A stretch of 61,340 nucleotides of DNA, filler included, from Hausera hauseri (Eukaryota), in assembly GCA_046269625.1 (NCBI GenBank). It is 9 parts of 9 records of this genome, joined end to end, with 100 filler letters (N's around TTAATTAATTAA, not from the genome) between each part and the next. Parts side by side here need not be neighbours in the genome. Positions count along the whole stretch, not along the records: positions 48,427 to 56,924 come from JBJURY010622109.1; 8 more parts are not named here. One strand, 5' to 3'. Positions within the stretch are counted from its first letter, which is position 1. Each line of letters opens with the position of its first letter. Position numbers and translations under genes: made by a program. The notes under the pieces are model-generated. The model saw only the letters and a list, made by a program, of their open reading frames with translations, did not search any database and was not told the DNA's origin. Below are positions 4,176 through 56,924 of the stretch, in pieces.

Positions 4176-6394
4176 AAATACGATAGAAGAACTAAGAAAA
4201 ATATTATTATACTTTGCAATCAAGACAAACTCAACTCGAGAAAATGACTTAAATTGAGCTACGAGCTTGGCACAAAAAACATCTAGAAAACTTCCAAGAA
4301 AGTAAATTGGTCAAAATTGTTCGACAAAGTAGAAGACAAAAAGAATAGTAATAATGGACTCAGAGACATTATACGCAATTTAACGACAACGGATAATAAT
4401 AACCGAAAAAGCGAATCAAATTGGTTAGTCAGCCTATTTACAATAATGATGTTATAAAACAAATGAGTGCTGTCACTGTCTATGATTGTGACAGATTCAA
4501 GCTTGGACAAAAATATTTACTGATGGACTTAGAAGCATGTGAAGATGCTGACCACACAAATTTGAAACAAAGGAGAAAAGTTATTTCCTGTACCAACAAC
4601 AAGAATTGATATCTTTGGATGGCATGGAATGTGTGCTGAGACGATCTCGTTGTATTTTTTATTGTGGGCTAATGCACGGATACTCATCGATAATTAAACC
4701 AACAACCCCTCCAATTTAAATGAATTTGGAAAGATAATATTGTAAGCAAGCCCGAGAAACCGGAAGACTGAAATGGGATAGCATGGAATTAGAAACGCAA
4801 CCCGGAAAAATAATTAGAGTATATAAGATAGTAGCCGGAAGACTAGATATGCATAATGGGAACTGTGGCGGAACGGAATACGATACCGGAAAAACACTGG
4901 AAGCAAACGTAGTGGTAGTAGACTTTTACGATTCGGAAATGCGAGTTCAAAAAGTAATATTCCATAGCGTCACTAAGAATCAAAAATGTCACATTCAAGA
5001 CGAAACTTGTGCCTTCAAAAGTTCTGTCGTCATATGGGAACCGCCCACCGAAAAGGCCTGTAATTTTATTAAGATAAAGGAATTGAAATTTAATGAAACT
5101 GCCAAAAAACGATACGTAGATAAATCCAACATCAATTCAAGAGCACGTAAAGACGTATCAGGGCATTATACACCTACAATATTAATATCTGATCAACATG
5201 GATTGAAATTCATACAAAAGAAAATGATTTCATGATGTGAAGTAGTAATGTTTACCACTAACTACGAAGCGTTCTTCGTCGCAGAAACGGAGTTAAACGC
5301 GAAAACATACAATTTTGAAACAAAAGACATTCGAATCGAGGATTATCTAAAAACAGAGACGATTATTTTTATTATAAAGGGAAGGTTGGAATTAATGAAC
5401 TATACCACAGAATGATAATTAACGATTGTAAATTAGATGCGGAAATTATGTCGACAAAATTAGCTTTTATTTATGCGAACCCTGAGTAAGCATCACCAAT
5501 CATTTCCATGAGAGAAAAAATTTTTGGTCGTGTTACTGGTGATGTTCTACTAACTTATGAATGCGAGAAGAGAGATATACCAATTAATGTCGAGGAAAAA
5601 CGATGCATACAAGAACTTCCCGTGATCTATCAGAATACTCCGCGCTTAGCCATGCCTCTCTAGAGTATTGCTAGACAACGCAACACAACCTACAATATTG
5701 AAGGATTACAAAGCAAGTTTGGGTGAACCAATGTTTAGACGTAGTGAAACGGATTGGGTTAGCTTACCAAATGGAGGTATCACTGCCGCTCCAAATAAAT
5801 TAACTGGAACTAATTTAGCAAAAGGAATTACCGACGACAAGTTCCAGGATACATCTCAAAAGGGCATTTACAGACCAAGAGATCGAAGCTTTTCGACAAT
5901 TTCTCGCTTTTCCACGACAACGAACACATGAATTAAACCGGGCCATGGCGTCAGTAGTACACACCCGATATCAGGCTAAATGGGAATCCTTGCTTGGTGC
6001 GAACCACTACCAGCGAGTGACCACAGAAATACTGTACAAAATATGGGGAAGATTGTTAATTTTTGGACAAGCTGCATCTGGATTCTTAGCAATATATTTC
6101 CTGATACAGATGGTTAAGGCCGTCATCCAAGCAGTAATTAATGGATGCGAGATATTTACATTGACTGGATTTTCATGTAAACTATTAACTGCAATTATCA
6201 CACCGCTTGGCAAAATGCTTAAAGCGTATGAAGAGAATCGATGGAAAAATGACGTTGAACGCCATGCCGGCTATTATCATAAACGTCGAGCAAGACCCGT
6301 ATTTCGATTGATACACAAGGCTAAGAAACCAATGACACGAAGAAATAATTCAGATGATGATGAGCCTAAGGGAGGAGATGCAATTCTCAGGTAA
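4176..6394 (+). pseudogene. Retroelement env: chuvirus/herpes-gB-like (class III) fusion glycoprotein with upstream leader, degenerate
   Basis: Reconstructed across frameshifts: hydrophobic signal NWLVSLFTIMML/IKQMSA|VTVYDC, then a Cys-rich ectodomain (CVLRRSRCIFYCG, NGNCGG, CHIQDETC, VIWE, INDCKL, TYEC, RCIQELPV, KGIY), then a C-terminal hydrophobic region IWGRLLIFGQAASGFLAIYFLIQMVKAVIQAVINGCEIFTLTGFSCKLLTAII and a basic tail. The motif pattern matches chuvirus-type glycoproteins as I recall them. Confidence 0.8.
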
Positions 6395-7700
6395 AATAGA
6401 CACAAAATGTATTCCATAATTAGAGCACCCTTACCTATCATGCCACCAACGGCTGGAATATACAAAGATTGCAACAGAACATCTATGATGTCATACAGAT
6501 CAGCAATCTGCCAGAAACCCTTCAGCTATGAAGATCCTTATGAAGGAACAAAACAATATGCAGTATTTAAGAAAATGCAAATCACTATTCGATGACGAGC
6601 AGAGGACGACCACGGGATATTATATTCAGCGAGGATAGCTCGGAACATAGAAACAAGATCAACAGTATGGGGAACGCAAGGAACGAAATCTTTCCAAAAT
6701 CCAACAGTACAAGAACTATTAATCAGAAACAACGCAAATAACCTGGTAGTTAACGACTTATACCCTAACGAAGAATTGAAACAGCTGAGCAAAAATATTA
6801 TTTCATCACCAGAGATAACGATAAACGGGCATAAAATTTCTTCAGTTAAACGACCAAAAGACGTCTCGAGTTGTTACGGGTCAGTTATGGAAAGAAGGTC
6901 CTTCACAAAAGTTACTATTGAAGATTGGGAAGTCTATGCCTTAATTGACACCGGATCAGAAAAATTGTTTATCAAATTAGAATCAATACCGCCGGCATTA
7001 CGGAAACAACTGAAACCTGCATCGTTGTCAGACCCAGGCAGCATAGGAGCTTTTGGGCAAGAATCCAAACCAAAATTTAAATGGAGTCCTTTAGTTCAGT
7101 TAATGGGTCAAATCCTTAAACATGGGTTCGCTATAATAGATCAACTTACTGATGACGTAGTACTAGGATGTGACATATTGAAACAATTACCCAATATCGC
7201 AATAAACTTACAGACTGGAAAATTACTTAAACTTGGACCAGTAAAAGGGATTAAAACAATGAAAGAAAGGAAGCAAGGAGAAGTATGGATTCCCGAACCG
7301 AAATGCTAATTTACGCTCAAATCCGCGAAGAGGACGACCAACCAGTATATTTTGAGCCACAAGAGGACGTTAATCCAAATATTATACTTAGTAACATTTT
7401 GACAAGAGTAACGACAGGAAGAGTACCAGTCAGATTAGTAAACAATGCACCAACTCCTGTAAAGTTGTACGTCAATACCACATTGGGTCATGCTTATAAA
7501 GTATCGGCAATAACAATTGAATAAAAACCATATAAATATGCTGAAGTTCCACCTCATGTCAAAACAAAGTTTTCACCAGAGGCATATTGTCAATTTTACG
7601 AATTAATATGTAAATATAAGTCGATTATTGCCCAAAATAAAGAAGACATAGGTAGAGCGAAAACCTTAAGATTAACGATTCCGTTACACAAGAAACCTGG
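6395..7700 (+). mobile_element. Ty3/gypsy pol 5' part: linker, aspartic protease and pre-RT region (RT missing)
   Basis: YALIDTGSE catalytic motif, IGAFG flap and VVLGCDIL. Then a typical PR-RT linker (VPVRLVNN..PVKLYVNTTLG) and IIAQNKEDIGRAKTLRLTIP, after which the sequence becomes non-coding. Confidence 0.85.
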
Positions 7701-24243: not shown

Positions 24244-24439
24244 TGTAATGTACGTGTGTGTTTATTATTGAGAAAAAGAAAAATGAATAGGGAAGAGGTT
24301 ATGTGCCCGGGGGCGTGTTGTGGGGCTGACGCAAAAGGTGCCGTCTGGCCGACGGTGCAGGGTTAACGGCTGGGACCTCCGCCCCGCCGCGACGGGTCCA
24401 AAATTGCAGGGTGACCGACCTCCCCACCTGTATCGTTTT

Positions 24440-30661: not shown

Positions 30662-30934
30662 TGTTCAAATTATCTTTTTTAAACCTAATTTCGGTTATTT
30701 TATTAGTGGATTCACAGGCGACTTACAATTAATCAGAGAATAAAAACGCCCATCACGGGGGCTTAACATATATATCGAAGCAAGTGAAGTCAAAAATGAT
30801 TTCGATTAAAATCAATTAAAGTGTCTCCCAAATAAATTGTCTCGAATTAAAGTCGATTAAAGTTCGATTAAAATCGATTAAAGTGTCTCCCAATTAAAGT
30901 GTCTCGAATTAAAGTCGATTAAAGTGTCTCAACA
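30662..30934 (-). mobile_element. 3' LTR (~273 bp) with internal short tandem repeats; PPT at 30935-30949
   Basis: Minus strand: PPT gaaaagggggagaaa, then TGTTGAGAC...TTTGAACA (TGTT/AACA ends). U3 has repeated gagacactttaat / cgactttaat units, then a TATATAT box and AATAAA. Confidence 0.75.
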
Positions 30935-31758
30935 TTTCTCCCCCTTTTCAAAAGGATTCGGTCCTCCGGATCACTCTGGGTACTGACATCGATGAAGCTG
31001 AGGTTTCTTGGTTTAATCGTCAAAGTTGCGTCGTTCACTGGGTTCATCCAATGGCATAATCTTTGGGTTCGGTTGTCGTAGGTGTAAGAGAAGTGGTAGT
31101 ATACTGATGGTTGTCTGCAATATGGACATGAAATACCGTTTTGAAAAGTCATCTGTATAGCGTTTTCTGGGTCAATCGATTTGAGAGATTGAGATCGAAG
31201 TTTGTTGAAACAGGTTGCGCATAATTTGTGATTACATTGGAATTGAACTACTGTTATTCTTTCGGTAAGACATATAGTACATTCATATGTAGGAAACTGG
31301 TCATAGTAGTGAGTTTGTAATGTTGCCCATAGATCAGGAGGGGCTAGGTCGCATATAAGATCAATTGGACATTTACTGAAGACAGGAAACCAATCTTCTT
31401 GTAAAGATATTGGTAATGGTGGGCTATAGGAAATGATTGGTTTGGGTATTATTGTAGGTACAAGTACTGGTAACTCGGGTAATGGTCTAGTAATTTGTTC
31501 TGGATGATAGCGTGGGTGTGGTATTGAAGACGGTTGTCGTAAGAGAGTCATTACATTAATGTGAGGTAAAGGTGTTTGAAGAACAATCTGTGGTAGTCTG
31601 GTTATTATAGAGGGGTCAAATCTATGGATTGGGAATTCTATTCTAACTGATGCTTGTTGTTCAAGTCGGAAGTATCTTGTTGGAAGTATTTGTGGAATTG
31701 GTGTGTTAGTGATGGTAAGGAGAGCTCTTCTAGGATGGTGGAAGTATGAGTAAATAAA
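30919..31758 (-). CDS. Pro-rich plus C3HC4 RING-finger ORF at the 3' end of an LTR retrotransposon (5'-partial)
   Basis: The frame is open from the contig edge (31758) to TAA at 30919. RING: CTICLTERITVVQFQCNHKLCATCFNKL...SCPYCRQ. The C-terminal KRGRNVETL* is encoded by the PPT/LTR junction. Confidence 0.8.
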   Translation of the reverse strand, partial: FIYSYFHHPRRALLTITNTPIPQILPTRYFRLEQQASVRIEFPIHRFDPSIITRLPQIVLQTPLPHINVMTLLRQPSSIPHPRYHPEQITRPLPELPVLVPTIIPKPIISYSPPLPISLQEDWFPVFSKCPIDLICDLAPPDLWATLQTHYYDQFPTYECTICLTERITVVQFQCNHKLCATCFNKLRSQSLKSIDPENAIQMTFQNGISCPYCRQPSVYYHFSYTYDNRTQRLCHWMNPVNDATLTIKPRNLSFIDVSTQSDPEDRILLKRGRNVETL

Positions 31759-31858: not shown

Positions 31859-33140
31859 CATCTGGTGTTGGAACTGGAGTTAACGGAAAAGGGACAGGAC
31901 ATGTGTTATAGACATACGCAGCATTCGTCGCGTTGACGTACACAAAACATTGGTCGACAGGCTCCACAGTGGAAGTCGAAGATCCTTTGCAGTCAATTGT
32001 GGAGAATGTCTGTACATGTAGGCCATCCGAAGCACATGTCGCAATATAGGAAGAATCAATATTCGGAATACATGCACGCTGATTAAGAGTCACCTCTGTA
32101 CAGTCCTGACATTTCGAGTCGATGCATGCCTTCTGCTTGAACGAGGTATGCCGCTCAGCATGAGCTGTGGTTGCATCATATTTGAGCCCACATTGGTCCG
32201 TGCCTTTCTCCAACAATATGTAACCCTTCTCACCCCAATCGGCGCCCCATGAATTCTTTACAATCCAGTAGGGGGGATCATATGTGTCGTCAAAACCAAC
32301 AATTAGGACAGCATGGTCTTGCGAGATGCTTGTACAGTTTGTCATGATCCCACCTGTATAATAGTTCCATGAGTCTGCAGCAACTGCAATTGTAACTGGC
32401 CCATGCAGGAACACGAATGCTGCAATCTTATCCTCATCCTGTTCGAGTACAGAGTGTCCAGTGATGACTGCGCCAACAGGAAGTGAACTCAAGTTCTTTG
32501 GACATTGGGGTACGAAATTACCCCCACTGACGTATGGCAGACTGCTCTCACTAATAACTGCACCTTTCCGATACTTCACCAACCAATCAAACGCAGTTTC
32601 TTGATAACCGCTACTACAGCCATAATCCAGAATATCGCACGAGACAAGCTGCTGCTCAGACAACGATGTTAACGGATTGCCCGCAAGAAACCACTGACCC
32701 TCCATATTCCCGGTCGATCCAAACGCCCAGCAACTGCCACAGTTCCCTTGGTTCTTCACGGGAGTAACAGCACCCTTTTTGCGCCAATCGATCTTCTGTC
32801 CAGCAGCAGCGAATGCATCTTTCGCACTCAATCGAAGCACATTCTTCTTTCGCCGACTACTCCTTATATCCCTGGAAGAGCATTTGTGCATCCGCTCGAA
32901 TTCCTCCTCACTCCAGTCTGAAAATTTGTTAACACCAAACTTTGCAAGCGGGTTAGCTTTCGCGTGCTTCTCCATTCGTACCAGGTTCTTCTTGAAGTAC
33001 TCAAACCGCTTCAGTTCCTCCTCCTCACTCGCGTATTGCCGCTCGTACTCCTGCTTAAACCTTTCAAACATCATGTGATTGTCCACGGTGGCAACGACGT
33101 ATAAAATAACGAGTAACACAAATGCCAACTCAAGATACAT
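31859..33140 (-). CDS. Kinetoplastid-type cathepsin L-like cysteine peptidase (cruzipain/CPB family) with C-terminal extension, 3'-truncated
   Basis: Intronless. Signal peptide; I29 prodomain (ERFNIN-like, FGVNKFSD); QGNCGSCWAF, QDHAV and YWIVKNSWG catalytic motifs; Cys-rich extension (FKQKACIDSKCQDC..ACIP..TC..DC..QC..TC). Confidence 0.93.
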
Positions 33141-36100
33141 TATTACTCAAGGTTGTGTCGCGATACGTTCTCTCCGATGTGTATGTGTGATCCGCTATGA
33201 AATAAATTCGCACCTTGTATGGTGAAGCCCCCCTCTGAGCCTTAGCTTAAACAGACAATTATAACTTCAGTCCACTAATGAATAAAAAAGAAAACCACTT
33301 ACCCCTTCCTAGTAGATAAAAACAGTGAAAAATAGATTAATGTTATAAGACTCTTGTATCTGCTAATGCTTGAATGTCTGAGACAGCAATGAAATGTAAA
33401 CAGTGATAAAAAATGGGCAGGTCGTTAACGATATCATATCAAAAACAAAAAAAACCAAGAAAAATAAGTGAGTCACTTCATTGTGAACGTCAGCAACAAC
33501 AGAGAAAATGAGAGTGTGGACATCAGCAACTCCTCAGAGACGTGTTAGTCGAACATCGATGTACGCAATAAAGTAACGTACACGGCTAAACACGTCATCA
33601 TGCATCAAGAAATTGTGGATGAGACCTTTTCATCCCAACACAATCCACAGATTACTTCATCATTGCAAGCAATACAAGTCACAACTGCCTTGAAACCAAA
33701 ACGCAGTCAGACATACAAGTGACGTATATACAAGTGTATTTTGAACTTCTTCAAAGAACAGAAACTCCGCTCACAGCACTCATCTGTATTAGCCTCGTGC
33801 ATCTCACAGCGCCAGCAAATATTCCTTCCCCTCTCTGGGATAAGGGATGTGTTACGTCACACAGTGTAGTGCTTTCCATTTTAATGACCTGTTCACAATA
33901 TTCACATTAACACCCACAACACAGATGCAACCATAACATAAGGAAAAAATGGATGCACACATCCAACACAGTCACAGTAGCGCTATCGATGAAGTGTGTC
34001 CAACGCACCATCATGGTACGAATCTTTGTAATAATGCGTCTCAAAATCACATGCAACACGAAACCGCGCCCGGTACCAGCGGATTATTGGCTAACAATGC
34101 AGAGATACGCATCCCTTAGCGCACACAAAACAATACAACAAAACACCGCATTGTTCAAGAATCCCAGTACACTAATTCCACGTCAGAATGCTTGACGCTT
34201 GAGCTGGTGCGTTGCCTGGCAAAACCAGTACTCTTTAAAGAGATGCCACGTTGCCGAGCTCGACATCCAGAGCCATACATAAAAAATATCAGCTGCGCAA
34301 TTAGTATTAGTAATGATCGAGCAACAACAACGGGACGCGGTAATATAGTCGCTGTATGCGGTTGTGACACTGATGCTGGTGCCGTCCTGTTCCTCTTCAC
34401 TCTATGGGTTCTTATGAAATCTCGACTGCTGTTCGCAGCGATCGTGTGCCACACACTAACATAAATAAACATTTTTTTTTGTCTGGCCATGGCATCGTGA
34501 CATAAGGTTGTGTGTTGCATGTAGTAGCTTTCGTGCATAGATTGTCTCATGAATCAGTGTCAATTCACAGCTGAATGATGCGCGGTACATGTGCTGCAAC
34601 ACTTGCCAATACCATACTCTCTGTGCATTTGTCATTGTAGTTGTTGATCACTGACACGGAGAATACTGTATCAACAATAATCATGTGGACTGCATCGCTC
34701 TGTCGCATGAACGCTTGCGGACAGGTGATGGTACATGTGCAAATGTTCCAGGTCACCAATGTCCCAAGAGAAAACAACCAATCGCTTCAGTTAGCAGCAT
34801 CACAAGCGATAAACAGCTGCTGCGTCGTTGCGTTTGCTGCGCTGCTGTTGGCAGTTCATTTTGAGAATAAAACTCCGTCGCAAAGAAGAATTTGTCATCA
34901 CACGTTCCTCTGGGGTCACTATTGCAGACATCGGACCATGAGAGAAGACAAGATAGAACACACGCATAGCAATATAGAAAGACCTCTCAATAAACCATGA
35001 ACAAGTGAACAGGTTGTCAACATACATACAGCATTGTCTTAGTCCTTCATTAGGTTGAATGAATTAATGGACCACATACTAAACGCCGAAAGCAACATAT
35101 GAACAATAAACATATAATATTGGCTACGTACGTTACCGCACTGTATTCGCTATCGTAATTAATACGGCCAGGCAATATGCGAAAATGTGCATGTGTGAGA
35201 CAAAGGCGGGAGTGATTGAGTTTGTGGGAACACAAATGGTGCCAAAATAACACCTGCAATAATAGGCTTTGAAAAGGGTTTGAGCTCCGCGCAAAAAATG
35301 ATTACCATCAGTTCAGGTTGGTAAGAATCAGCCCTACACACACATGATATTTCCATGCCTTGTATGAATGGTACAATCTTGTTATGATCATCGGACAGAT
35401 TTTCTTGTGAGGAAACGCTCACCAAGCAAAATGCTTGTTGAACAGGAGCTTTCAACTGCTGTGTTGGCTCGTTGATCGTGACGCCGCACTGAACAGAGAA
35501 CGACAGGGTAATCTTCACCACAGTAACAACATACTTCGACATGGCGTCGGCGAGTATGTTACTAACAACCAGACGGTGTCACAATCACCCTCACAGGCGC
35601 ACGCATGCGTCGTAATAAAACCCGAATGAAAGCACCATAATCATCTCAAGTTTATGAAAAGCATTTCAAAGCATGAAAATAAACCGATGGACTTGAATTC
35701 ATTGACATACTACTCGATGGCGCCCAAAAGGTTCAACAGACGACGAACATTGCAACGTGCACAATTGGAGCCATTAAAATAATTCTCTAACACAGGCGAA
35801 AACAAAGGCACACATGTCACATTGGATGCACAATAGTCGCTTGACTTTCTCCCGCTGACGTGAATGCGCCAGAAGCCTTCACAAATTATGAACGCAAACG
35901 TTGTCAAGACGCATCAACAACCCTCATAACCATACGCTTGATCGCCATCATCCAATCCAACTAATCAAAGGCAGCGAGGATCCAAGCTCCAAGCCGCATC
36001 GATGATCATAACGTTCCATGAAGTAGATAAACAACAATTACAGAACATGGAATACAACCATGGATCGTAACTGTGACAACCGAAGGCAATTGAAACTTTG

Positions 36101-42260: not shown

Positions 42261-42789
42261 TTTGCGACGGCGCACAACGTCTTGATATCCGCCTCTGGCC
42301 GGCGCATTAATGAAAGCTTTTTTTCACCCATTGAAAGAGTTGTCGTTGAATTAATGAAACGGACTGCTCCCACACGAGAGGCCTCCACGCAGCGGGGTCG
42401 GGCAGCATTCTTTGGGCGCTGGCGAATTCGTCGAACCTGGTTCTGGGATGGGTTCGCTTCACAGCTGTGGTGATGTTGAGCTCAACTCTGGGCTCTTAAT
42501 CATGGAGGGCGCTTCGGCGTCGATGGAGACCGTGACATGCCCGCACGCCTCAGAGTTTACAGATTGCGTGCTTCAACATACGCGGACTGGCGAATACTGA
42601 AAAGCGTGCCGCGCTAGTCGCTGAAATGTCCATGCGTGCGATTGATATTTTGATAATTGGAGGGACGAGGACAACGAAGAAACTAACAAAACAACGCTTG
42701 AAATCACACAGAAATGAATACTTTGACATGACCATCAGTAGAGATAGCCGATACTAAGGTGTAGGAATCATTACTCGCTCGGAGCTCAG

Positions 42790-43935
42790 TGAGCCTGAAG
42801 GTCTTCGAGGATGGCATGTGACTGGCATTCAAACAATATCTGAGCGCCTTCGGCAATGCCAACTAACTGGACATGGACAGAAGTTCATGTTAATTGGCAC
42901 GTACGTCCCCACGAATGTTAAATTGACAGTATGGAAACGGAATCTGATTGAAGTAGAACAGTTGCTCAGCACGTCATCAGCCGCTCTAATTATGGGGGAT
43001 TTTAATGCCCGCATAGCGCTCAATAACTGCCCGAAGGTACAGCATACCAACCAGCGGGGACAGTTACTGACTGACAAGATAACGGAGCTCGGACTAATTC
43101 TTGGGAGCAATGCGTGCAGACAACAAAAGAAGCGATGCCTTTAGTTCTGCGCAGGGTATATGGAATGTTCTACTATAGACCATGCCATTTTCACACTAAA
43201 CATTATTCAATTTAGTCAAAAAACTAGATACCAGACATTCTACACCATTTCTATAGATCATAGAGCGGTAATCACGACTCTCTATGTTCAGAAACTGCAC
43301 GCTGGTAAATCGCATCCTCCGGGACTCTCCCGGAAAGAAGCCTTTCCAACAAGACTAGAACCAACATTGGAAATTGACAACACATGGGAGCGACTTCTGC
43401 AACAAGCGCTAAAGACACAGAATAATCCGGAAGGACAGAAAATAAAAAGAGGTTTCACCCGTATATATCGGAGAGCACATGGATGCTTATTCGCAAACTA
43501 AGTTTTGGACGCAAATATAGGAAAAACGTTCAAGAGAAACAGGTTTGTAATAAACTGAGACAGCGGATACGGGCATCGATAACAGCAGACCGTCGCAATT
43601 GGTTGGATACTCTAGCTGCTGAACCAGAGAAACATTTAATACACGGAAGCACTCACCTTGCATTCAAAACACTCAGACAATTGTATAATAAGCGAGAGCA
43701 GCAATAGTTGGCTACGGAGGAAGATCTCGCGAACCTTAGGAAGCATTTCACCGATTTATTTACGCCAGGCGAATGGGCTGGCACAATTGACACTCAACCG
43801 CAACCGGGGCTGAGTACAGAGCAATGCTCTGGATGCCCATGGGAGGAGCGGTGGATAGACAACGGTCAATCCACCATGGTGATTTATTCCGACGGCAGCG
43901 AACACAATCAAGTAGCCGGTTTTGGATTAGCTTGC
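42790..43935 (+). mobile_element. Degenerate non-LTR retrotransposon: AP endonuclease, linker and an RNase H-like start
   Basis: LIGTYVPT, LIMGDFNARI, TNQRGQLL, STIDHAIF and IDHRAV (APE motifs); helical linker ending LRKHFTDLF; then VIYSDGS..AGFG (RNase HI-like N-terminal motif). Confidence 0.75.
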
Positions 43936-44289
43936 AAATATACACGCCTACAAGAAAGAGCCGAAATAACTTCTTTAGGACAGAACCTCATAACTTGTTT
44001 GCGAATGGATATCAAACGAGAACGGATGCTCAACACATTGGAAGTTACGACATTATCAACACCGACAACGATTAATTTGGATAATCCTCTTCAGGAGGAA
44101 GACGCTTCTATCGAGAACAGAACTAGATTATCAGAAAAGACAACAATACTTGGACTTAGCGACCGCATTGAACAGAGGACGGGCCTCTTTGTTTCTTCCA
44201 TTCTTTGGAAGAACAACAACTCTCAGGGACACAAAACTTATTAGAACTAGTTCCATTATATTGCGTTGCATCTTGTTTTATATTTTAAG

Positions 44290-44465: not shown

Positions 44466-47400
44466 TGTTACAAAATTTTTAGTTTCTGATATTTAGATCT
44501 ATGTATAATTTAGCATGAATACAAGATTTTCTAGTATATTTTCTGAAAAACTAAAATCAACCATACATTGCAAGTTAAATTTTTTTCTCACATTAAAATG
44601 ATAAAAATGTTATGCTGTATGTGGAATATTTAATTTGTTTAAATATCCCTAATTGTGATAAACAATAATATATTTTTTGGAAACTTATACTATTTGAAAT
44701 TCAGCAGTGGTGTCAAGAGCAGAAATTAAGACTGATGTTGGGAATCACTAGTCAAAATTACTGGAAGTTATCCCGAATAAAATTCTGAAAAGGGACTCAG
44801 TTATAACGCCGAGAATCTTCAAAGAAGGAAACAGTGCTGACCAATTTTTGGAACTGCATGGATGCATTTATGCCGCAGCTTGAGATATCGGAAGAAACAC
44901 AGTCTGATTTTTTCGTGAAGTACTTAGAAGATATTCAATGCTTTGTGAAATTGCAGTGGGGTTACGGCCAAAATCATCAGAATTTCGAATGGCTCAAGGA
45001 AACTTTTCCAAAATTATATGGTCAGAAAAGCTCAGATATTTAATCGTGGATGAAATTATTTGCCATTTGACAACAGAATGGTCAAGCAACGAAGGCGTTC
45101 ATGAAGGAAGTAAGAAGTCGTTGTTTAAGGAAATACCGAAGTTGACTTCTGAGGAAAGAGAGCCGAAAACTCTTCAGAGTTTTATAAATGTCCTTATTAA
45201 TGGCAACGTTCAGAAGGCCCTAGAAATTTTGAAGCCTAAAACCCTGGGTGAAGCATTCGATATGATAAAAAGGAATGTGAAACTCAGGAAATTCCGCCGA
45301 CATTAAACGTTCTGGCCGCGAATGACGAAATACGCATGCTTAGTACTGAAATATCTGAAGGGAACAAACGTATTAGCTCGTTGCATGAAACTCAAAATAC
45401 TGCAGCGAGAAATGCAAGTGAGTCAGTAGTCATACGATAGTAGAAAGAACAGCTCCATCAGTGAAAAAGGCGGATACTGGAATTGTGGGAGTAACAGTCG
45501 CATTCTGAGGAACTGTAAAATGTCTTTGGTTTGCAAGAAATATAACAAGAAGGGACATATAGAGAAATTTTGTCGAAACGAAAAACGTAAATCAGTTCAC
45601 GTGGTCGAGTCTGCTAGTATATGAAGTAATGAAAGTGAAAGAGATACGGGAACAAGTATTTTTCATATTTCAAATGCCAAGAAGTCATACGCCAAAGTGG
45701 TGAAAGAGAATGTAACGACCCGAAACCAAGAAAATCCTATTGCAGCGAAGAAAAGAACACCAACTCTAAAAGATCGGAGAAAACCAGTTTGCTACGGGTA
45801 GATCAACGGTAACAACGAAAAAATCTTACTAGACACATGAACCGAAGTGAAGGCTATCAGCAAAGACGTGCAGAAATAAGTTTAAAGGCTCAGATAACAC
45901 GTTGAAAACGCGACAGTCATCCATAAAAGTGTAGTGCGTTGATGGATTTACATTGCACGTACGTGCGGAAGTGTTCCTGATTGTTGAATTAGGTGCTAAA
46001 GTGAAAATCTGTAATTTCTTAGTTGTGGATGGTCTGAATTCTGGCATATGTCTTGGGTTTAATATCGATCTCGAGAATAATGTCGTTAATAGTGGCGCAA
46101 TTTTTGTTCCCTTTATGTCTAAGGTGAATGCAGACATAACAGTCCCAATAAATCAGTCAAACTAAAAGGGCGCTGTTTGAGGAGTCGGAAGCACTATATG
46201 CTTTGTGAGGCTCAGGCTGTAGCAGTTGCAGTTACAGACGAAACAACCGAAATTTTATCCACATTTCAATGTATGGATTACAGCATTAGAGAAAGAATTT
46301 AGAGATGTATTTAGTTTGTCTAAATATGATATAGGATTGACCGGAGGGAATGTTTAATATATTTGGATGATATATTAGTTTTTGGAAAGACATAGGAGTA
46401 ACATCTTTACAGGCTGCGAAATATGCTAACCAAAATCAAAGAAGCTGACTTAAGATGCACCATCAAAGTGCCATTTCTTTGCAAATGATGTAAAGTACCT
46501 AGGCCATAGAATGTCATCTAGTGGGATTTCTACGGATTAGGATAAAATCAAGTGCATCTAAGATTGACCACAACCAGAGTCTCGGGAACAGATGAGGAAA
46601 TTTCTTGGACTTTGCTGATACTATCGAAATTACATTGAAGATTACGCCAAAATTGTTGCGCCATTGGAAGAGCATGTGAAGACATTTGGAATAAAACAAG
46701 GAGTAGAAAAATTCATCCGTTGCAATGGTCAAATTATATGCTCAACACTTTCCTTCATATAATACAAGTTTTAACAACAGCTCCAATTTTGTCAATTTTA
46801 AATAGCCATTATCATTTTATTTTGGATGCGGATGCATACGATAATACTATTGGATGTGCAGTTTCTAAAGTTCAAAGTGGAGATGAAATTGTCTACAGCA
46901 GAAAACCACTATTGTGTGACAAGAAAAAAGTTACTAAGTGTCCATAAGTACACAAAAATGTTTAAATGCTCTTTGTTTGGAAGAAGATTTGTCATAAGAA
47001 CAGATCGCAGGGCTCTATGCTAGATGATGAATAGCAAAACACCAAGTACAAGACAATGTACTTCATGGCTCAATGAGTTAAGTGTTTTCGGTATGGATAT
47101 CCAATACAGGAAATATGAAGAACATAAGAATGCAGATGGTCTATCCCGAGCCCCTGAACAATTTCAACAATGTTCAATGAATCACGAGAAGCCTAAGGCA
47201 AAACGAAATGTGAAATACTACAATAAAAATCAAAATGATAAAAAACCGTTGCCTAGTGCAAGCGTATAGTAATGGAAGAAGAGAACGTCTTTCAGATGGA
47301 TGATAATGATAATCTTGCGTTTATAATCAAACCAATGAAAGACAAAAACATTGAAGCTCAGTATCCAGGAGAATTCAAAAATGCAGACAGACGCTGTGTC

Positions 47401-48114
47401 GAAATCGGAAGGACTTGCGATTTAGAGATTTGCTGTATACAATTCGCCATGGAGACTATAAACCCCTATTGCCAAAAATTAGGGGTATGAAACCGTCGAC
47501 CATGCTCATACATGGACATATGGGAGTCAGAAAAACGACAGCACGTTTAAAGGAGAGATTCTACTGGCTAGGTATGTCTTTTGATATTAAAATAAGAATG
47601 AGAAAATGTAAATAGTGTCAAATGTGTAAAAATCAACGACCAGACAAAAATAGGGCACATGGATCCTTAAATGTTAGGTATCCCTTTGAAACAATATCCA
47701 TCGATGTAACGGGACCTCTTCCAGAAAGCAGAAATCGATGTAGATATATTTTGGGTATCATCGATAAATTTTCAAAATACCCTATGCTTATCCCTTTGAA
47801 GAATGACTGCCAAAAAGATATGTAAATATATATTCAACAAGTGGATTTCAATGTGGAATCCCTGATAGGATACATTCTAATAGGGGTACTTTCTTCGAGA
47901 ACGAGATCATACATGAGCTATGTGTACTTCTCGGAATAAGAAAATTCCGCAGCTCACCATACTATTCTCAGGGTGACGGAGTGGTTGAAAGATTATTCGG
48001 CACAGTGAAAGATATGCATTACGCAACAGCAAAGTCATCTAATTGTGAGTGAGACGAAGCAATTCCCATTGTTGAATTCGGAATGAGAAATACCATTTGT
48101 AGAAGTACTAGATT
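44466..48114 (+). mobile_element. Degenerate Ty3/gypsy element: probable 5' LTR (~44466-44706), PBS, gag, protease, deleted RT, RNase H, integrase
   Basis: ...CAGCA then TGGTGTCAAG at 44708. Two eroded Zn knuckles (~45475-45575), LLDT* protease, an RT that jumps from DIGLT straight to YLDDILVFG, RNase H ILDADAYDNTIG, and integrase HGHMGVRKT..FYW..C..C and SIDVTGPLP. Confidence 0.9.
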
Positions 48115-48426: not shown

Positions 48427-49490
48427 TCGGACTGGCTGGAGGAGAATCTTTCCCATAGATTGACTACAGAGTATGAAAAATGTCCTCAGAACCTCCTCTA
48501 CCCTTAATGCCAGAGCTATCCTGTAATATTTGACTGAAAAAACAAGAATCTCTTGAGAGAAGTGTCCAAAAAAGATGTAATCTACTCAAAAAGGTGTGAG
48601 CCATGTTAAACTGCTCAACAAAAAAAAAGAGTGCAAAGTGCAAAGATAAGTCACGGTTTAGCAAATGACTGATTTTACAACGTTATATACTCCCAATAGG
48701 CTAGTATGTTGGGTTTTCTGTCTGATTCAGCAACCAAGTTTAAAGACTACCTCAGTGGTTTTCACGACTCCAGGCTGTCTTTGTTTAGCTCGCCAACATT
48801 TAAACTGGTCAAACCTGGTCTGAATTATTCCACACTAAACAGATACGTCTTAAAACACATTTTGTGGTTTAGAAAAACAACTTTTACTGTGTTGTTGGAA
48901 ATATGGTGTCTAATCAATGTAGAATTAGCTTGAGCCTTTTTGTAGCTTCCACAATTCATTTGATTTCAGGCTTGAAAATAGGTAACTTCAAAACATTTCC
49001 AAACTTACAAACTAGGGGTGGGTGTTAAAGATTATGATAAAAAACATCAAATTATGTAAAATTATATCGATTAATCTGTACAAAATACTTTTATAAACTC
49101 ATTTGTTCCTTGCTAATGCTAACTGATTTGCATATGCTGTATGTAGCTAGCCACGTAGCAATATAATATTCATTTTATATTTTCAGACAAACTAAACACT
49201 AGTTTATTTTATGTATCGATCTGTAATACACAGATTTTGCTAATGTTAATGTTTCATACTAGCAAAAATTATTAGCATTAGCTACTAGTTTGACACGTAC
49301 CAAACTAGCAAAAGAAATGTTTAACAATCCTGTCACAATCTAAATTTCAGACAAAATTAATGAATAGATCATATTGTTATACCATAAAACAAATTTTCAC
49401 CTTACAAATGCTAATTTTTTGCAACAAGCAAGAAAAGTAGTTAGCCAGCTAATTAAGATTTTATCCAAACATAAATATTTTCAGAATAAA
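48427..49490. other. Non-coding, probably teleost-derived DNA
   Basis: Repeated gctaatgctaac / ttagcattagct / tagctagc motifs, common in teleost repeats. No ORF with recognisable motifs. Confidence 0.4.
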
Positions 49491-50625
49491 TTTGATATCA
49501 AGATGGGTGCGCCAGGTATTATGGACCGAAGATTGAAGATGATGGTTGTCGGAATTTTGGAAACTCCCTGAATACAGATGCATAGCGAGATGTATGAGAA
49601 AGGATCGACGAGACACGGGATGCACGGTGGGACGACAATGAATTAGTCAGCAATACACCAATATGATAAATGATTGCTTCCCTGAACGTTTTATGACAAT
49701 GGTTATATCAACTGTAATGGCATTGCGGTTTACAGAGAATTCTATTTATATCGATACCATGCCTAACTTGACTGTAGAATTCAGCATGAAATTACCGATT
49801 TCAGGTTGTCTCAATCTAGTCGAATTATGGAAGGTTGTTTCCCTTGGAAAAGTCAGGCCAAAGATGAACCGATTGGGAAAAGAGGGGCCCACTGCAACAC
49901 ATGTTTTTATGATATTAATTGACGGGCAATAATGATAATTATGTTTATGAGCCGTTTGTGAAGTCAAGTAAACAACGAGTAACTTGTACGTTACTAAAAT
50001 TGTATATGTATAATTATATGTATTGATTTGCATCAAATCGCGTAGATAGGATTTATGGTTTCCGTTCAGTGATGATTGTATGCCGTTTTGTTCAATTGTG
50101 GTTAATCTTTGATCTATCATGAAAGATTGACTCTAGACAAATACTGAGCAAAGGGATGCGAGTTAAAAATTGTTTTATACACTTTGGACATCGGAGAAGG
50201 TTGCATTCATTTGAAAATGACTTACCGAAATCTGTTATGAGTAGTGGGATTTATTTGATTCCCGTGATGATCCATAAACAATTATTCGAACATTCCCAGG
50301 TGAGGCCTAACAGTGTGATGCCGCCTAGGAACCAACATCCTTTAGAGAATCGTATTCTAAGGAAACGACAAGAACCCTATCGAAAACCTGAAATGAACTT
50401 GTTGTAAACGACTCATATGGAATATTTTTGAATTTTTTCGTTTCTTCTTCAACCGACATTCCATCAAAATAGTATCTCTAGTTTGTTGTTTATATTATGC
50501 CAAGGTACAATGTATTCCTTTGACTATCGTGCAGGTAAGGAATGAATTCATGGGATCGACCAAATAATAGTGAATGGGTCATTAGAAATAAATGCAAAAT
50601 TGAGATATGAGTATTGGATTCCCAT

Positions 50626-50763
50626 TTTAATTAATGAGATAAAATACATTTCAATTAATGAGATAAAATACATTTTAATTAATGAGATAAAATATATTTC
50701 AATTAATGAGATAAAATACATTTTAATTAATGAGATAAAATACATTTTAATTAATGAGATAAA
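50626..50763. repeat. 24-bp minisatellite, ~5.7 copies
   Basis: Unit (t/c)aattaatgagataaaata(c/t)attt. It produces the INEIKYI(S/L) repeats in the ORF track. Confidence 0.95.
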
Positions 50764-51164
50764 GACATCAGATTGTGAGATTCCTTGGATCACTGCAGTA
50801 TATTGTTTAATTTATTATGGTTGGTAAAATGGAAGTTTGGGAGAGCGGATATGAATTATGGCCTATATGTACTTCGATTTCCGATTGCATGGTGCCTTTG
50901 TGTTTATATTTCTATGCAGTCACATGGGATTATGAACGTCAATCGTTCAAACTGGACTTGACATATGTTTCCAGAGAATACGTAACTTATTATCACATTC
51001 CAACAATTAAAGGCGCAGGTATCTCGTATACCGAACCGCCGCCGGACTCCCCCTTCAGAGTTTCTATGGATCTTTATATGTTACTAATATTGACAGAGCA
51101 CTTGGATATACCTGGATATATTTTGATCAAATTAGAACCTAACATCATATCATTAGTAACATCA

Positions 51165-52704
51165 ATAGTACTCTGGTAATTGGTGTTACTAATCTCGGCA
51201 CGTCTTGATATATTACTGGAAGCTCTTGTATACACATCTTTTCCCACATTAGTAGGTACATCTTTCTTTTCACATTCATAGGTCAATAAGATCTCTCCGG
51301 TTACTCGTCCAAAAACACCTTCCTTCATTGGAATTATTGGTGATGCCAACTCGGGATTGGCGTATGTCAGGGCCAACTTAGTTCTCATGATTTCCAAGTC
51401 CAATTTACAGTCATTTGTTATCATTTTGTGGTATAACTCGGCTATCCCGGCTTGTCCTTTATAGTAGAAATAGTCGCCTCTGTTCTTCAAATAGTCTTTA
51501 ATCCGGATGTACTGAGTCTCGATTTTGAACGTTCTGGCATTTATTTCTGTCTCGGCCACGAAAAATGCTTCATATTTGTGGCATACATTACGACGTCGCA
51601 TCTGGAGAGCATAGCTTTCTTTACAAATTTTAATCCATAAGTATCAAAAATCAGTATCGTAGGTGTGGACTGTTCGGCTACATCCTCTTGTGTTTCAGAG
51701 TTAGTTTCCATGCTACTTATGTATCGTTTTCCTGTCGTCTCGTTGAACTTAAGTTCTTTAATTCTGATAAAGTTGCAATCGGTCTTGGTTGGGGGCTCCC
51801 AAATCACTACGGAACTTCTAAACGGGCATGTGCCATCCTAAATGTGGCACTTGTGGTTTTCAGTGTAAAGTTTAGTAACGCTATGAAACATCACTTTCTG
51901 TATACACATTTTGGTTTTGTAAAAATCCACTATTACGATGTTTGACTCTAATCCTTTTTCGGTATCGTATTCCTCACCGTAACAATGTCCGGTGTGCATA
52001 TCCAATCTTCCTGCTGCCACTTTATACACTCTGATTATTTTCCCTTACTGCATTTCCATTTCCATACCGTCCCATTTTATTCTCCCCGTTTCTCTAGCTT
52101 GCTTACAATGCTGTCTCTCTAAATTCATCGGAATTAGTGGGGTTGTTGGCTTAATTATTGACGAGTGTTTATGTACCAGTCTACAATGGAAAATGCTGCG
52201 AAATCGCCGCAGCATATATTCTACTCCGTCAAAGGTAAGTAGTTCGCGTTGTTGATATAATATATAACTTTTCTCTTTTGTTTCTAATCAGTGGGGCCTC
52301 GCATCTTCGCACATTTCCAAGTCCATTAACGAATATTTTTGGCCAAGTCTAAATTTGTCACAGTCGTATACTGTAACTGCGCCCATTTGCCTTATTAACA
52401 TCATCATGGTCAAAAAGTTGATTAGCCAGTTTGATTCGTTTCCTCTGCGATTTCCAGCCACATTTCGCAGCAGTTCTCCAAGTCTATTGTTATCAAAGAA
52501 GGATCCACTCTGATGTTCTTCTTCTTTTTCGAATAACTTAGACCGGTTCACTTCTTGAGATAGTTTCCTGGCGGCCCTTCTTGCTAAGGTAGTGACGTTG
52601 TTGAATTCATTTTCTCGGTTTGGGTTAATTTTAATGGCCAGATATAGCAATACTTTTCTCAATTCTTCTATGGTATTTTCTACCATAATTTTTTCGATTA
52701 TCAT
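51165..52704 (-). pseudogene. Second copy of the chuvirus/gB-like env glycoprotein (N-terminal two-thirds) with leader
   Basis: NTIEELRK...NWLINFLTMMMLIRQMGA|VTVYDCDKFRLGQKYSLMDLEMCEDA; AGRLDMHTGHC; IWEPPT..CNFI; TNDCKL; TYEC; CIQELPVIY..TRVLL. Collinear with 4176-5670. Confidence 0.85.
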
Positions 52705-55700
52705 TTCATCGCTTAAGGTACTTCTGGATCATTTACGCCGAAGGCCCCTCATAGCCTTTGCGGCGTTCGTTATGGTCTTCTCTTTCTCATCCAATACATC
52801 ACCGCTGAGGCTAGAGTGGTTTACTATTAGGATCAAATTTTTCATAAGTTCGTTTAGTTCTTCGTTGTCCGTACTGAAAGTCGGTATGGACATTTGCCTC
52901 AACTGTGATCAAATCTCCATTATAATCGATTTCCTCTCGTATTTTCCGAGGTCTACAGACTGAACTCTTCTGTTTTGTTACAGCAGGTACACTGCCGTTG
53001 AGGGGTACTAAATTCTTATCGTATTGTTCATTATCTTCGTCTGTCTGCAGGTACTCCAAATATACTGTTGTATCTCGGACTCCTATTATTCGTCCTACCT
53101 GCTGTTCGGCTTTAGACTTCCTTATGGCCTCTTCTTTTGTTTCATCGATAGTGATGGTTACCACTAACCGGTTTATTTCGCCTGGAATAATTCCAACCTC
53201 TATCAATAATTCTGACTTGTCTAGTATCCTTCCTCTAAAATAAAGTCTATAGCTCAACTCATGGGCATATCCATTGTCCTTTATCCATAGTAATACATCC
53301 TTTACAAGGGAGCGCGTAGTGAATTTTTGTTCCTTCTCGTCCATCCAATCTGATATTATCTTTACCAGGATCCTTTCCTCAACTTTTACCTTTTAGATTT
53401 TCGCATATTCCTTGAGTAAAAGCTTAGGTACCGTACTAAAAGTCGTACCTTCGTTAGTTAATTTAGTTAAAGTAGGAACCAGAGGTCTTAACTAACTTTC
53501 AGTGAGGTTCACTTCAATTAATTGAATTAAATCCTTCTCGATTTGTACTGGATTCAGAAGCATTCCTACATTGAACCGTTGGTATGGAGAGTATATCTCC
53601 ATCTCCTCCAATTATATTCGGGTTATCGGATTCTTGACGATCATTGCGTCTAAATAGGCCTCCCAATCTGGTTCATTTTCATTATCCGGCAGTTGATAGC
53701 TCCTCGACGGTGTATCAGTCGACCCGTTCACACCTGCGGTCCATGTAGTTTTTATGAGGTCTTGTAGTTTTTGTTGAATTTGGACCACTTTTGTCGTTCG
53801 GAATCATCGTCCATTAGCGGATGTTTGGTTGAGCAGTGTTAACAACGAACACAATTCTTCGGGTGAAATTAACCCTTTTTCTTGGTAGTTTCTTAATTCA
53901 GACGTGACATTTCTTTGCCATCTTTGAAAGAATTGGGATTTATCAGCCTTTTCTGCTTCTGTAAGGGCGTACTTATTTTTATAAACTTCGAGTTTTCCAG
54001 TTAATTCGTCTAATCTCATCGCTCTTTGTTTCGTCTTAATGCAAGTTTCTTCGACTTGCTGTATCTACTGCAACAATTGTCTTAGCTTTTCGTCACTAAT
54101 TTCTGCCATTTCCGCCATCAATAATGCTAATTCGTACATCTCGTTGGTGCTGTTTGAATCTGGATCGATCGCAGCTAATAATTTTTTTACAAATTTAATC
54201 TCCTCGAAATTAAGGTGACGGTCATTCTTTATTTTAATTAGTTCGGTAGGAAGTCTTTGATCCGTTCCACCTCTCCATTCTTGGGGACAATGTAGGAACT
54301 TAACCGCTTCTTCCACGATTAACCGGTATTCTGGACAACAGTCTAAAGTTTTAAGATCTCGGACTGAGACTTCTTCGATGGGTTTGGCTGTCAGCCAGCG
54401 TATTCCCTTCAGGCGGAAATCTCTAAATTGCGGATAGAAATCGCAAATCGCTTTTCACTTTCGCATGAAGTTTGTTTCTTCGATCATCTTATATATATCA
54501 TCTAGTATCATCATCTCCTGTTTCTTTTCCATAAAATTCAATTGACGCAGTGCCTCAAATTGGGTTCGGATGTCAATTTCTGCTTTCATCGTATCTAGAT
54601 TTCGGGCGTCTTCTTCCAACTGCTTCTTTACTGTAGGTTCGCTCTCCGGAAATTCATTCTTCTGTCTGTTTATTAATTCGCTTAACCTTGTTATTACTTT
54701 AAACCATTAGTTCAATTGATTAGCGATTTCTGACTTCGCTAAGATTGCTTTGTTTCACATTTTGCGAGCATCGTCTAGTTCATCATCTGGACCTTTAATA
54801 AAATCGATGATCCGGCAGGCATAGTCAAACTCATCCTTATATTCATCGAACTCGTGGATACAAGCCATAATTATTTTGGGTGTTTCTTCGCTATTGATGT
54901 ACATAATTCTGTTCCTTAGACCGTATATCTGCGACCGTTTTTCGGCTTCAATTCTAATACGATTTTCCAGACTAGTATATTGCTTGGAGACTGTCGAAGC
55001 GACCTTTATCATTTCCATTAAGGGTGGAATATCTATCGGATCTATGCCCAATATCTCTAGGTCATCTGCATCTCGTTCCTTGACCGGCTTCCTTTTTAGT
55101 CGTTTGACTATTGCAAATCTAATTTCATTCATGACACGCTCCAAATTACGCACTACTGTTTTTAATTTCGGGTTGGCTTCTAATGTAGCTAATAGCGACT
55201 GAGCTTGGTTGATTCTAGCTTCAATATCTTGAGTAGTTTTATCCCACGTCTCCGGGATTTTCGTCTCAGTTTTAGTCCACCGTTCTAATTCGCGTTTTCA
55301 CTGAACTAGTGTTTCTTTTGCCACTTCTTTAGGCTGATCTAGGTCTATAGCTTCGCTTAGTTTCCCTTCACTATATAGCTTCATCTTTTTATGTAACCTC
55401 TCTACAAACTGTTGTTCCTTGCCCGAAATATCCACTTGCTCACTCATTGCTTTAAGTTTCTCCAGATTCTGTTGCACCACCTCTGGATTGAAGCAATTTA
55501 TCCTCATTTTTTAATTCATCGGCGTTTTTCCAAGAGCGCCTGATTTTCCATTTTTTAGGGTCAAGTTTCCCTTCTTGCTTTATTTCCTCTTCGCTAGTAG
55601 GTAAGGGACATATGTCGTTTATCTCATTTATAAATGTGGTCGGCTCATCCATTTCGCTTGGTGTAGCTAGATTAATTTCCCAAATGTTCGAGGCGCAATG

Positions 55701-56312
55701 TGTGTCGCTTTCCAACACGATTTCGGTTTCTGTCTTCGTGCTCGACTTCTCCTTGAACATTGGGGATCTCGAACGATCCTTGCGTTTTCGTCTCAATGAT
55801 GGACTACGGCCTCTATTCTTGGTAATTTTAAGTATAAGTGGTTCTAGAAATTCTTCTTTTTCGTCGGCTTCTGCCTTCTTGGTTACCATTTTTATAGTAT
55901 ACTCGGGTTCTATGTCTGAGTCTACTTTATTCGGAGCGTCAGATTTTCCTATTTCATTTAAATTTTTATTTAATGTAGGACTGTTCTTCTTCCGTGCCAT
56001 GTCAATCAGCCTTGACGGTTCAATGGAACGTTCATATTCCGTTTCTGGTTCACGCAGACCGTGGTAAACTTTTAATAGTCGTAACTTGTGTTCATACGCG
56101 TTTCTGGCCACTAAAACTTTAGGGTCTTTAGTATCAGGTTGGGCCTTTAAGAACCGTCTCAAATCTTGTATCGCAATAATCATGCCCGTGTCTCTACGGA
56201 TACCGTAAATTGCTTCTAAATTTTCGTTTTTAATTACATTAGTTTTACTAGGTACGACAAATGAAACACTTCGTGGGTTTGGACAGGATTTCACTATGTG
56301 CCATTCCTGTCC
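52705..56312 (-). pseudogene. ~1200-codon insert between Gag NC and env: low-complexity and helical/coiled-coil segments plus a ubiquitin-like domain (53152-53374)
   Basis: A chain of minus-strand ORF pieces that begins in frame with the gag knuckle and ends in frame with the env leader (ELNELMKNL...GLRRK*SRSTLSDEMIIEK). No protease, RT or integrase motif is visible in it. Confidence 0.6.
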
Positions 56313-56924
56313 TCATGTATAACAGATTAAGTTGCCATTTCTCCCGATCCTTTGTCGGCCATCCTCGTTCACTGGGAATTTCGATTTGCTTGGATTTCTA
56401 TTGCAGTCCTGCCGCACCGGGGCTTGCCTACTATACGCATTTTGGCGGTTATCATAACTCCGGCTGTTATTCTGTCGATTAAAATTTTTGGAGCCATCTA
56501 GGCGTTTATTCGTATGATAGTTTGATTTATTTCGACTATTATCAAAATTCTGATTGCCGTATCGTTCATTCCTGCGATCATAATTACTGTTCTTTTTCCG
56601 ATCTCCATAACTCCTATTAAATCGTCTATCATTCCGATTATTCCGATTCCTATCGTTTCGGTCACTTCGATCATTGTCTCTATCATTTCTGTCGCTGTTT
56701 CTGGCATATCTATCCAATGCCATTTCTAAGTCCTGAGCCAAATGCAATGTCCAATCAAAATTCTCCGGGCGTGCTAGAATCAGTTGCTTTACTATGTCTT
56801 TGGACAAAATACCATTTATTAACTGCGTCATCATCATGACGTCTAAATCTGGAGGACTTGCTTTTTCTGCGGCTTTGCGTCCTGCTTCATTTTTAGACTT
56901 TGCTATGTTCGCTATCCTTAAGAT
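56270..56924 (-). mobile_element. LTR-retrotransposon gag C-half (CA-CTD, R/N/D-rich linker, CCHC knuckle)
   Basis: QLINGILSKDIVKQLILARPENFDWTLHLAQDLE; an RNDR-rich linker; ICYT*GQEWHIVKSC, which is CX2CX4HX4C with one Cys mutated to TGA. Confidence 0.85.

Follow-up and report, generated by a model that had tools for sequence, protein, structure and literature searches.

The closest described counterparts of the element treated here are the Burro and GYPSM1 elements, giant Ty3/gypsy elements whose internal region reaches up to 25 kb (Grohme 2018 and Jurka 2007, as cited in PMC6431247). The planarian Burro is described as carrying one open reading frame (ORF) of 4,873 amino acids that holds Gag with CCHC knuckles, accessory domains, a Ubi2/SUMO-like domain, BCL2, env and protease (PR) (PMC6431247), and its env lies in frame between gag and pol and resembles the fusion proteins of mononegaviruses (PMC6431247; Arkhipova and Yushenova 2019). 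Ty3/gypsy elements of the order GAG-ENV-POL with an Env of the glycoprotein B (gB) type are also reported from Nematoda, Bryozoa and Platyhelminthes, and in some of them a pair of transmembrane segments (TMs) encloses the ectodomain (PMC13524379, Chary and Hayashi). We analysed a stretch of 61,340 nucleotides from Hausera hauseri (assembly GCA_046269625.1), hereafter the window, in which separate contigs are joined by spacers and two decayed copies of such an element sit on different contigs. We consider it likely, with some room left for doubt, that the active ancestors of this element encoded Gag, Env and Pol in one Ty3/gypsy-type frame of Burro-like layout, with a product that may have been split at a membrane, and that the copy retaining gag (the window copy) is a decayed multicopy long terminal repeat (LTR) retrotransposon. 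A sequence-only reading of the same DNA had proposed a polyprotein topology like that of flaviviruses and alphaviruses; the arrangement is real, but its surprising part, an env in frame between gag and pol and after ubiquitin-like and BCL2-like domains, is already published for Burro (2019, PMC6431247).

The window copy is a gag-insert-signal-Env remnant on the minus strand of contig 48427-56924, and a related copy occupies most of contig 4176-8278. It passes through three successive minus-strand frames. In the first (56924-55452), the C-terminal end of Gag and an R/N-rich tract are followed by a damaged CCHC knuckle and 286 further open codons; the second (55510-52811) is 900 codons long and is interrupted by nine stops; the third (from 52908) begins with a 160-codon leader interrupted by one TGA and continues through a signal-like segment into the start of Env. 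Along this path there are 1, 9 and 4 stops in 472, 867 and 444 codons, respectively, whereas 1,000 shuffles of the sequence gave means of 31.6, 61.9 and 31.1 and lowest counts of 16, 38 and 15. Because the depletion lies far below the shuffles in all three frames, the path is more than chance. The Gag part gave no Pfam match, and R/N-rich tracts occur at the matching place in relatives. The single knuckle seen in the window copy aligns weakly to the knuckles of two relatives (P0005 and P0009, E 0.12-0.24). The Env remnant matches Pfam PF24664 (E 6.6e-07, 28.1 bits, cut-off 27). Contig ends have removed the 5' part of gag, the capsid domain and the 5' LTR; Env ends at about 51170, where tblastn matches also stop (51169), with neither a C-terminal TM nor Pro-Pol. 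The window copy is a decayed, 5'- and 3'-truncated sequence that yields no protein.

Much of the anatomy drawn by the sequence-only reading agrees with these results. The knuckle is followed by open frame in which Pfam finds no protease (read-through of 56924-55452 and 55510-52811), although the TGA in its second Cys codon had gone unmentioned. The internal signal stands where it had been placed, and the leader before it fits the claim of at least about 150 in-frame codons with one TGA (coordinates in Table 1). The size of about 3.6 kb given for the insert is right for the distance from the knuckle to the conserved leader, and from the knuckle to the signal it is 3.85 kb.

The second copy supplies part of what the window copy has lost. 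Over leader and Env, 68% of the nucleotides in an alignment of 1,504 bases are identical between the two, in line with the earlier statement that the leader is conserved between contigs. Synonymous sites are saturated between them, and we quote only the ratio of nonsynonymous to synonymous differences (pN/pS) and not dS. This ratio is 0.19 for the leader (0.10-0.31, 37 codons) and 0.18 for Env (336 codons); the selection check proposed with the sequence-only reading therefore gave a purifying result in both parts, the leader included. PF24664 is found in the second copy with E 2.8e-18 (6391 being the far end of the match, which starts at 5819), its TM reaches a mean Kyte-Doolittle hydropathy (KD) of 2.05 over 19 residues, and a protease follows in the same frame as the TM, with two stops between. 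The linker-protease part corresponds by tblastn to residues 1096-1401 of the relative P0006 (E 3.7e-19). The TM and Pro-Pol that had been predicted to follow Env are absent from the window copy, while a TM and a protease are present on contig 4176-8278. One contig thus gives the order gag-env and the other env-protease, and neither copy has gag, env and pol together.

The continuous frame is seen in relatives. A phmmer search of 1.84 billion representatives returned 40 relatives of Env at E<=0.001; word-index protein searches with the Env region (longer or near its length) found no match where the exhaustive phmmer did. A Pfam scan covered 16 of the 40, picked mostly for length, and found PF24664 in all 16, a protease after Env in 8 and reverse transcriptase (RT) in 4. 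Of the 13 relatives examined, 5 have a CCHC motif and Env within one protein, the motif lying 233-625 residues ahead of Env, and in P0023 Env is preceded by 1,365 residues. The relatives with P numbers are known as predicted proteins, and two loci (L001 and L002) were read as DNA. These came from a metagenome scan covering 53 of 64 parts, which gave at least two related loci; no related locus was found in viral contigs (421 pattern matches, 0 confirmed) or in genome contigs (303, 0). In L002 (440-8521) a single ORF of 2,693 codons encodes knuckle, signal, Env, PR, RT, RNase H (RH) and integrase (IN). No terminal repeats were found in L002, and it is close to P0024, so that the two are not independent. 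P0015 and P0024 likewise have their env between gag and pol in one frame. The one-frame Gag-insert-signal-Env-TM-Pro-Pol arrangement that the sequence-only reading had ascribed to the window is accordingly found in relatives, with L002 seen as DNA, and not in the window copy, which has 14 stops and two frame changes.

The relatives show Ty3/gypsy-type PR-RT-RH-IN sets, and a profile including P0015 matches Ty3 Gag-Pol (E 4.8e-46). Of the features that define the GAG-ENV-POL class, the knuckle is present, a class III Env is present in both copies (PF24664 above its cut-off in each), and the gag-env-pol order is complete in L002. Membership in the BEL/Pao elements with a chuvirus-like glycoprotein was rejected, as Env precedes the protease and the relatives carry Ty3/gypsy-type Pfam sets. 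In the Env tree P0007 and L001 pair with support of 100/99; the tree otherwise has little resolution, with a long branch for the window.

Some relatives have peculiarities of their own. Several aspartyl-protease-like repeats follow Env in one polyprotein in P0006, P0007, P0009 and P0018. The ORF also runs past integrase, for about 300 last codons in L002 and likewise at the C-termini of P0006, P0010 and P0015, with one or two hydrophobic segments, and from its sequence this region resembles a second small membrane or secreted protein. The P0015 gag-env-pol polyprotein is annotated at NCBI as a hypothetical protein of Flavobacteriaceae, and is probably from a mis-binned eukaryotic contig. In P0029 mitochondrial ribosomal protein L47 is fused to the N-terminus of Env, likely a gene-calling chimera or an insertion; because of such chimera-like cases, DNA checks of predicted relatives matter.

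The insert between knuckle and signal raises the question of whether it belongs to the element at all. For about 900 of its codons (parts 1 and 2 in Table 1) neither Pfam nor a blastp comparison with the relatives gave a match, part 1 staying without a family even at E 5, and the insert has double the length seen in the knuckle-bearing relatives (233-625 residues), as would be expected of an unrelated nested element or of host sequence. The insert nevertheless lies on the same strand, with one stop-poor path throughout, in P0023, too, Env comes after more than 1,300 residues, and a module at the 3' end of the insert has homologues at the corresponding place in six relatives. A profile built from those six finds it at 53557-53159 with 22.2 bits, against a best score of 6.8 among 500 shuffles. 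In public run X1, 11,128 contigs, mostly 80-95% alike, lie over the window contig and span gag, insert and env alike; summed depth is far lower outside 50983-56924 (depth is not a measure of copy number). Because the module is shared and the X1 coverage is the same as over gag and env, we take the insert to be the element's own part, as the sequence-only reading had assumed; with the stop-poor path, these results largely refute the nested origin, to which we give next to no credence. Part 2 is probably helical or coiled-coil, judging by its composition.

The module has a helical subdomain, with two stops inside or at its edge, followed by a ubiquitin-like domain. Its AlphaFold model has a mean predicted local distance difference test score (pLDDT) of 55.6; with this model, all 38 Foldseek rows listed belonged to the ubiquitin fold, with E values of 0.16-0.34 and no row reaching 0.001, and VIA gave ubiquitin-like chains with Z up to 6.3 for module residues 63-146 (root mean square deviation 2.5, 65 aligned). 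The counterpart in L001 matches Pfam ubiquitin (E 3e-04). Though each of these signals is modest alone, sequence and model together indicate a ubiquitin-like domain in the accessory region of the window copy. The helical subdomain (53396-53566) resembles Spn1/IWS1 and ARM/HEAT repeats (VIA Z 5.4-6.8), and may have a TFIIS-N-like pattern, for which L001 gives no Pfam support. Downstream of the module, an AT-hook-like motif is present in the window, in degenerate form, and in 5 of the 15 relatives examined.

The leader follows; in relatives, its place is taken by a Bcl-2-like domain. Such a domain precedes the signal in P0005, P0007, P0008, P0023 and L001 (Pfam Bcl-2 E 9.6e-04 in P0008 and 0.028 in L001; Bcl-xL match E 0.01), the alignment to Bcl-xL spanning the BH1 and BH2 regions. 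The window leader aligns in register with this domain at a score of 0.2 bits, below shuffles; its AlphaFold model has pLDDT 45, and 50 VIA rows are generic helical bundles with Z under 8 and no Bcl-2. It is possibly a degenerate Bcl-2-like domain.

Our calls of signals and TMs rest on hydropathy. In the frames that precede Env, no other 11-residue segment is as hydrophobic as the internal signal (KD 2.25 versus at most 1.65), and a hydrophobic stretch stands before the Env start motif in 13 of 13 relatives measured. A small residue occupies the predicted cleavage position in 30 of the 34 sequences that have the Env start motif (44 examined). The signal and its predicted cleavage position are therefore conserved; the cut itself is supposed.

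Several points weigh against a continuous frame whose product is split at a membrane. As far as 51574, the window copy is broken by 14 stops, and its frame shifts twice, near 55507 and near 52905; frame continuity therefore rests on the relatives, and 7 of 13 of these have no knuckle in the predicted protein and only 144-368 residues before Env. RT is present in neither copy, the second ending before it. The core of the window signal is short and modest (KD over 11 residues 2.25; relatives 2.15-3.68). Run X1 bears on the damage, here in favour of an open ancestral frame: among the 40 of 1,415 differing places listed, at least 4 of the 14 stop codons are hit, with at least 99% of the depth unlike the window, and contigs differ in length at both frame changes (3 contigs at 55507, 1 contig at 52905). 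These length-difference contigs, however, are a minority of the local depth in a run that is possibly the window's own source, and the leader TGA is not among the 40 of 1,415 places listed and may therefore not be specific to this copy. A single ORF also implies equal amounts of Gag, Env and Pol, which is unusual for retroelements. Lastly, in L001, one of the two loci read as DNA, an in-frame TGA (3058-3060) stands directly before the signal with no ATG after it, the single finding at odds with strict continuity.

This stop in L001, a read-through site or a product of decay, follows a gag ORF of 999 codons, in which the ubiquitin-like module and the Bcl-2-like domain are included, and signal and Env continue after it in the same frame. 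The arrangement is what one would expect if Gag and the accessory domains were made in excess and ended ahead of the signal at a frameshift or a leaky stop, with signal-Env-Pol made only by read-through, a scheme that would solve the stoichiometry problem; the window copy, whose frame shifts twice and has a TGA 100 codons ahead of the signal, could be read likewise. Its breaks are placed unlike that of L001, however, among 14 scattered stops. The frame from the Bcl-2-like domain to the signal is unbroken in P0005, P0007, P0008 and P0023, L002 is wholly open, and P0007, the closest Env-tree relative of L001 (100/99), has no stop there. We regard such recoding as unlikely. Of the stop and ATG before the signal that, according to the sequence-only reading, would tell against its proposal, L001 has the stop directly before the signal and lacks the ATG, and L002 is open.

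Env, or Env-Pol, could also come from a separate spliced or internally started RNA with a Met in the leader, so that the signal anchor would lie near the N-terminus and Gag would be unlinked. The window leader has five in-frame ATGs (52893, 52845, 52752, 52704 and 52686), several predicted relatives start 144-233 residues before Env, and in PMC13524379 GAG, ENV and POL are handled as ORFs and ectodomains are noted to lie between two TMs. No RNA data set with this stretch was listed, a result that does not bear on its expression or splicing. Yet no Met lies within 45 residues of where Env starts in P0021, P0023 and the Env frame of L001, and the open frame from knuckle to Env in five proteins and L002 would be hard to keep without translation across it. 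The polyprotein and separate-RNA modes are not mutually exclusive, and a separate RNA in place of the polyprotein seems to us improbable.

Under the single-frame interpretation that we prefer, the ancestral frame would have run from Gag through a helical part, the ubiquitin-like domain, the AT-hook-like motif and a possibly degenerate Bcl-2-like leader into the internal signal, and then through a class III gB-type Env and its TM to protease-RT-RNase H-integrase. By general membrane-protein biology, the internal signal would start translocation with its N-side cytosolic, signal peptidase would cut after it and leave Env in the lumen, and the TM of Env would act as a stop-transfer segment that returns Pro-Pol to the cytosol. 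Gag and the accessory domains would stay tethered to the membrane up to their trimming by the protease of the element, and the cut would give any Bcl-2-like domain a C-terminal anchor. Processing of this kind by signal peptidase is plausible. As the cut would part Pol from Gag, Pol would have to be packaged via the Env tail, with both halves at one membrane, which the sequence-only reading took to be that of the ER. The conserved internal signal predicts both polyprotein processing and Pol packaging without a Gag-Pol fusion. A stronger version, for compact Burro-like elements, has host signal peptidase make two membrane-bound halves, with the Env signal as the C-terminal anchor of the Gag-ubiquitin-like-Bcl-2-like half, a tail-anchored viral Bcl-2 mimic, with Pol packaged only through the Env tail and Env-Pol regulated by read-through in some lineages (L001); we think this version doubtful. 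If true, it would mean a retroelement obliged to assemble on membranes and bearing its own modulator of apoptosis.

The polyproteins of flaviviruses and alphaviruses, to which the sequence-only reading likened this topology, place the capsid before an internal signal that is cut by host signal peptidase. Both groups are positive-strand RNA viruses, their fusogens belong to class II, and neither their capsids nor their enzymes are related to those of the element; homology is not expected. We found none between the window element and flavivirus or alphavirus polyproteins, and the likeness holds as an analogy of topology and nothing beyond it.

Among described systems, Burro is alike in its Gag with CCHC, long accessory region, ubiquitin-like domain, mononegavirus-type env and protease, and in relatives of the window element also in the BCL2-like domain and in the in-frame position of env. 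It differs in having two or three knuckles, versus one seen in the window, and in domains that Pfam does not detect in the window insert (BIR, RING, MATH and ankyrin), the comparison with Burro being by its description only. The read-through and open pieces of 56924-52811 gave no BIR, RING, MATH/TRAF-C or ankyrin family, decay lowering the sensitivity of this search. We therefore rejected an assignment to Burro proper and call the element Burro-like; the BIR/RING region of Burro1 is reported to protect stem cells (Lee 2026, as cited in PMC13465017). The errantiviruses of PMC13524379 (group Platyhelminthes_C1a) have the same gene order and Env class as the window element. Six Schmidtea Env rows of its supplementary file 2 share motifs, by eye, with the alignment of our relatives; the bryozoan and nematode rows seen there do not. 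From such Env motifs a flatworm host may be guessed. That paper treats intact elements with three ORFs; the terms 'fused' and 'single ORF' are absent from its main text, and its ORF-level files may be relevant to whether single ORFs occur. The window copy, decayed and lacking RT, has no placement in its POL tree. The nematode elements of Sacco et al. 2022 (as cited in PMC13524379) also have env between gag and pol, with an RNA-virus-type glycoprotein, and the nematode Env rows seen look unlike the window Env. Atlas virus, a belpaovirus, likewise has its Env within a single polyprotein (2,828 residues) with internal TMs, as described in bioRxiv 10.1101/2021.11.23.469668, but belongs to BEL/Pao, has the order Gag-Pol-Env and carries class II phlebovirus-like Gn/Gc.

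Against this background the window sequence itself adds little, being a dead fragment of a known layout. The relatives extend that layout: a Burro-type in-frame env occurs also in compact elements (2,693 codons in L002 versus 4,873 in Burro1), and the accessory region is built of modules, since some of the Env relatives carry ubiquitin-like or Bcl-2-like domains and others lack them. Signal peptides have no occurrence in PMC6431247, and our literature searches did not find the prediction of signal-peptidase processing or Pol packaging, which Sacco 2022, Lee 2026 and Grohme 2018 may discuss.

Table 1. Features of the two element copies, in window coordinates.
Feature	Position	Strand	Remarks
Gag C-terminal part: end of helical region, then R/N/D-rich low-complexity tract	56325..56924	minus	Open frame
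CCHC zinc knuckle	56283..56324	minus	Read directly; second Cys codon is a TGA stop (56315-56313)
Insert part 1: 286 open codons, charged, basic RS-like patch	55452..56282	minus	Frame change near 55507
Insert part 2: about 650 codons, E/K/L-rich, seven stops	53567..55510	minus	No family assigned
Conserved module	53141..53566	minus	Helical subdomain 53566-53396; ubiquitin-like domain 53392-53141
Degenerate AT-hook-like motif	52943..52963	minus	GRP-K/R motifs at the matching place in relatives; frame change near 52905
Helical leader, 160 codons	52429..52908	minus	One TGA at 52731-52729; sits where relatives hold a Bcl-2-like domain
Internal signal or signal-anchor segment	52378..52428	minus	Predicted cleavage after Ala at 52380-52378
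Env N-terminal part, chuvirus/herpes simplex virus gB-type	51169..52377	minus	Pfam Monjiviricetes_fusion; three stops, two frame changes, ends before TM
Second copy, also decayed: leader end, signal, whole Env, TM (about 6083-6139), cytosolic tail	4176..6394	plus	68% identity
Second copy: linker, retroviral-type aspartyl protease, protease-to-RT linker	6395..7690	plus	RVP E 1.3e-04

Just beyond the truncated Env, a tandem repeat of 24-base units extends for 5.9 copies (50623-50763). Elsewhere in the window, the contig at 15908-21193 consists throughout of diverged tandem repeats, the period being close to 180 bases. Other decayed retroelements lie at 21294-24261 (minus strand), 42536-44244 (plus) and 44807-48052 (plus), and include gag-pol with RNase H, a LINE-type (long interspersed nuclear element) endonuclease and an integrase zinc domain. 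On the minus strand there are also a gene like those for nonribosomal peptide synthetases, with a carrier domain, an NAD-binding reductase and in-frame stops (24767-26914), an immunoglobulin V-set exon (14331-14723) and an intronless RING-finger ORF (30922-31758). An intronless papain-family cysteine protease with an I29 propeptide and DUF3586 (31860-33146, minus strand) looks kinetoplastid-like, which suggests that the window holds DNA of mixed organisms.

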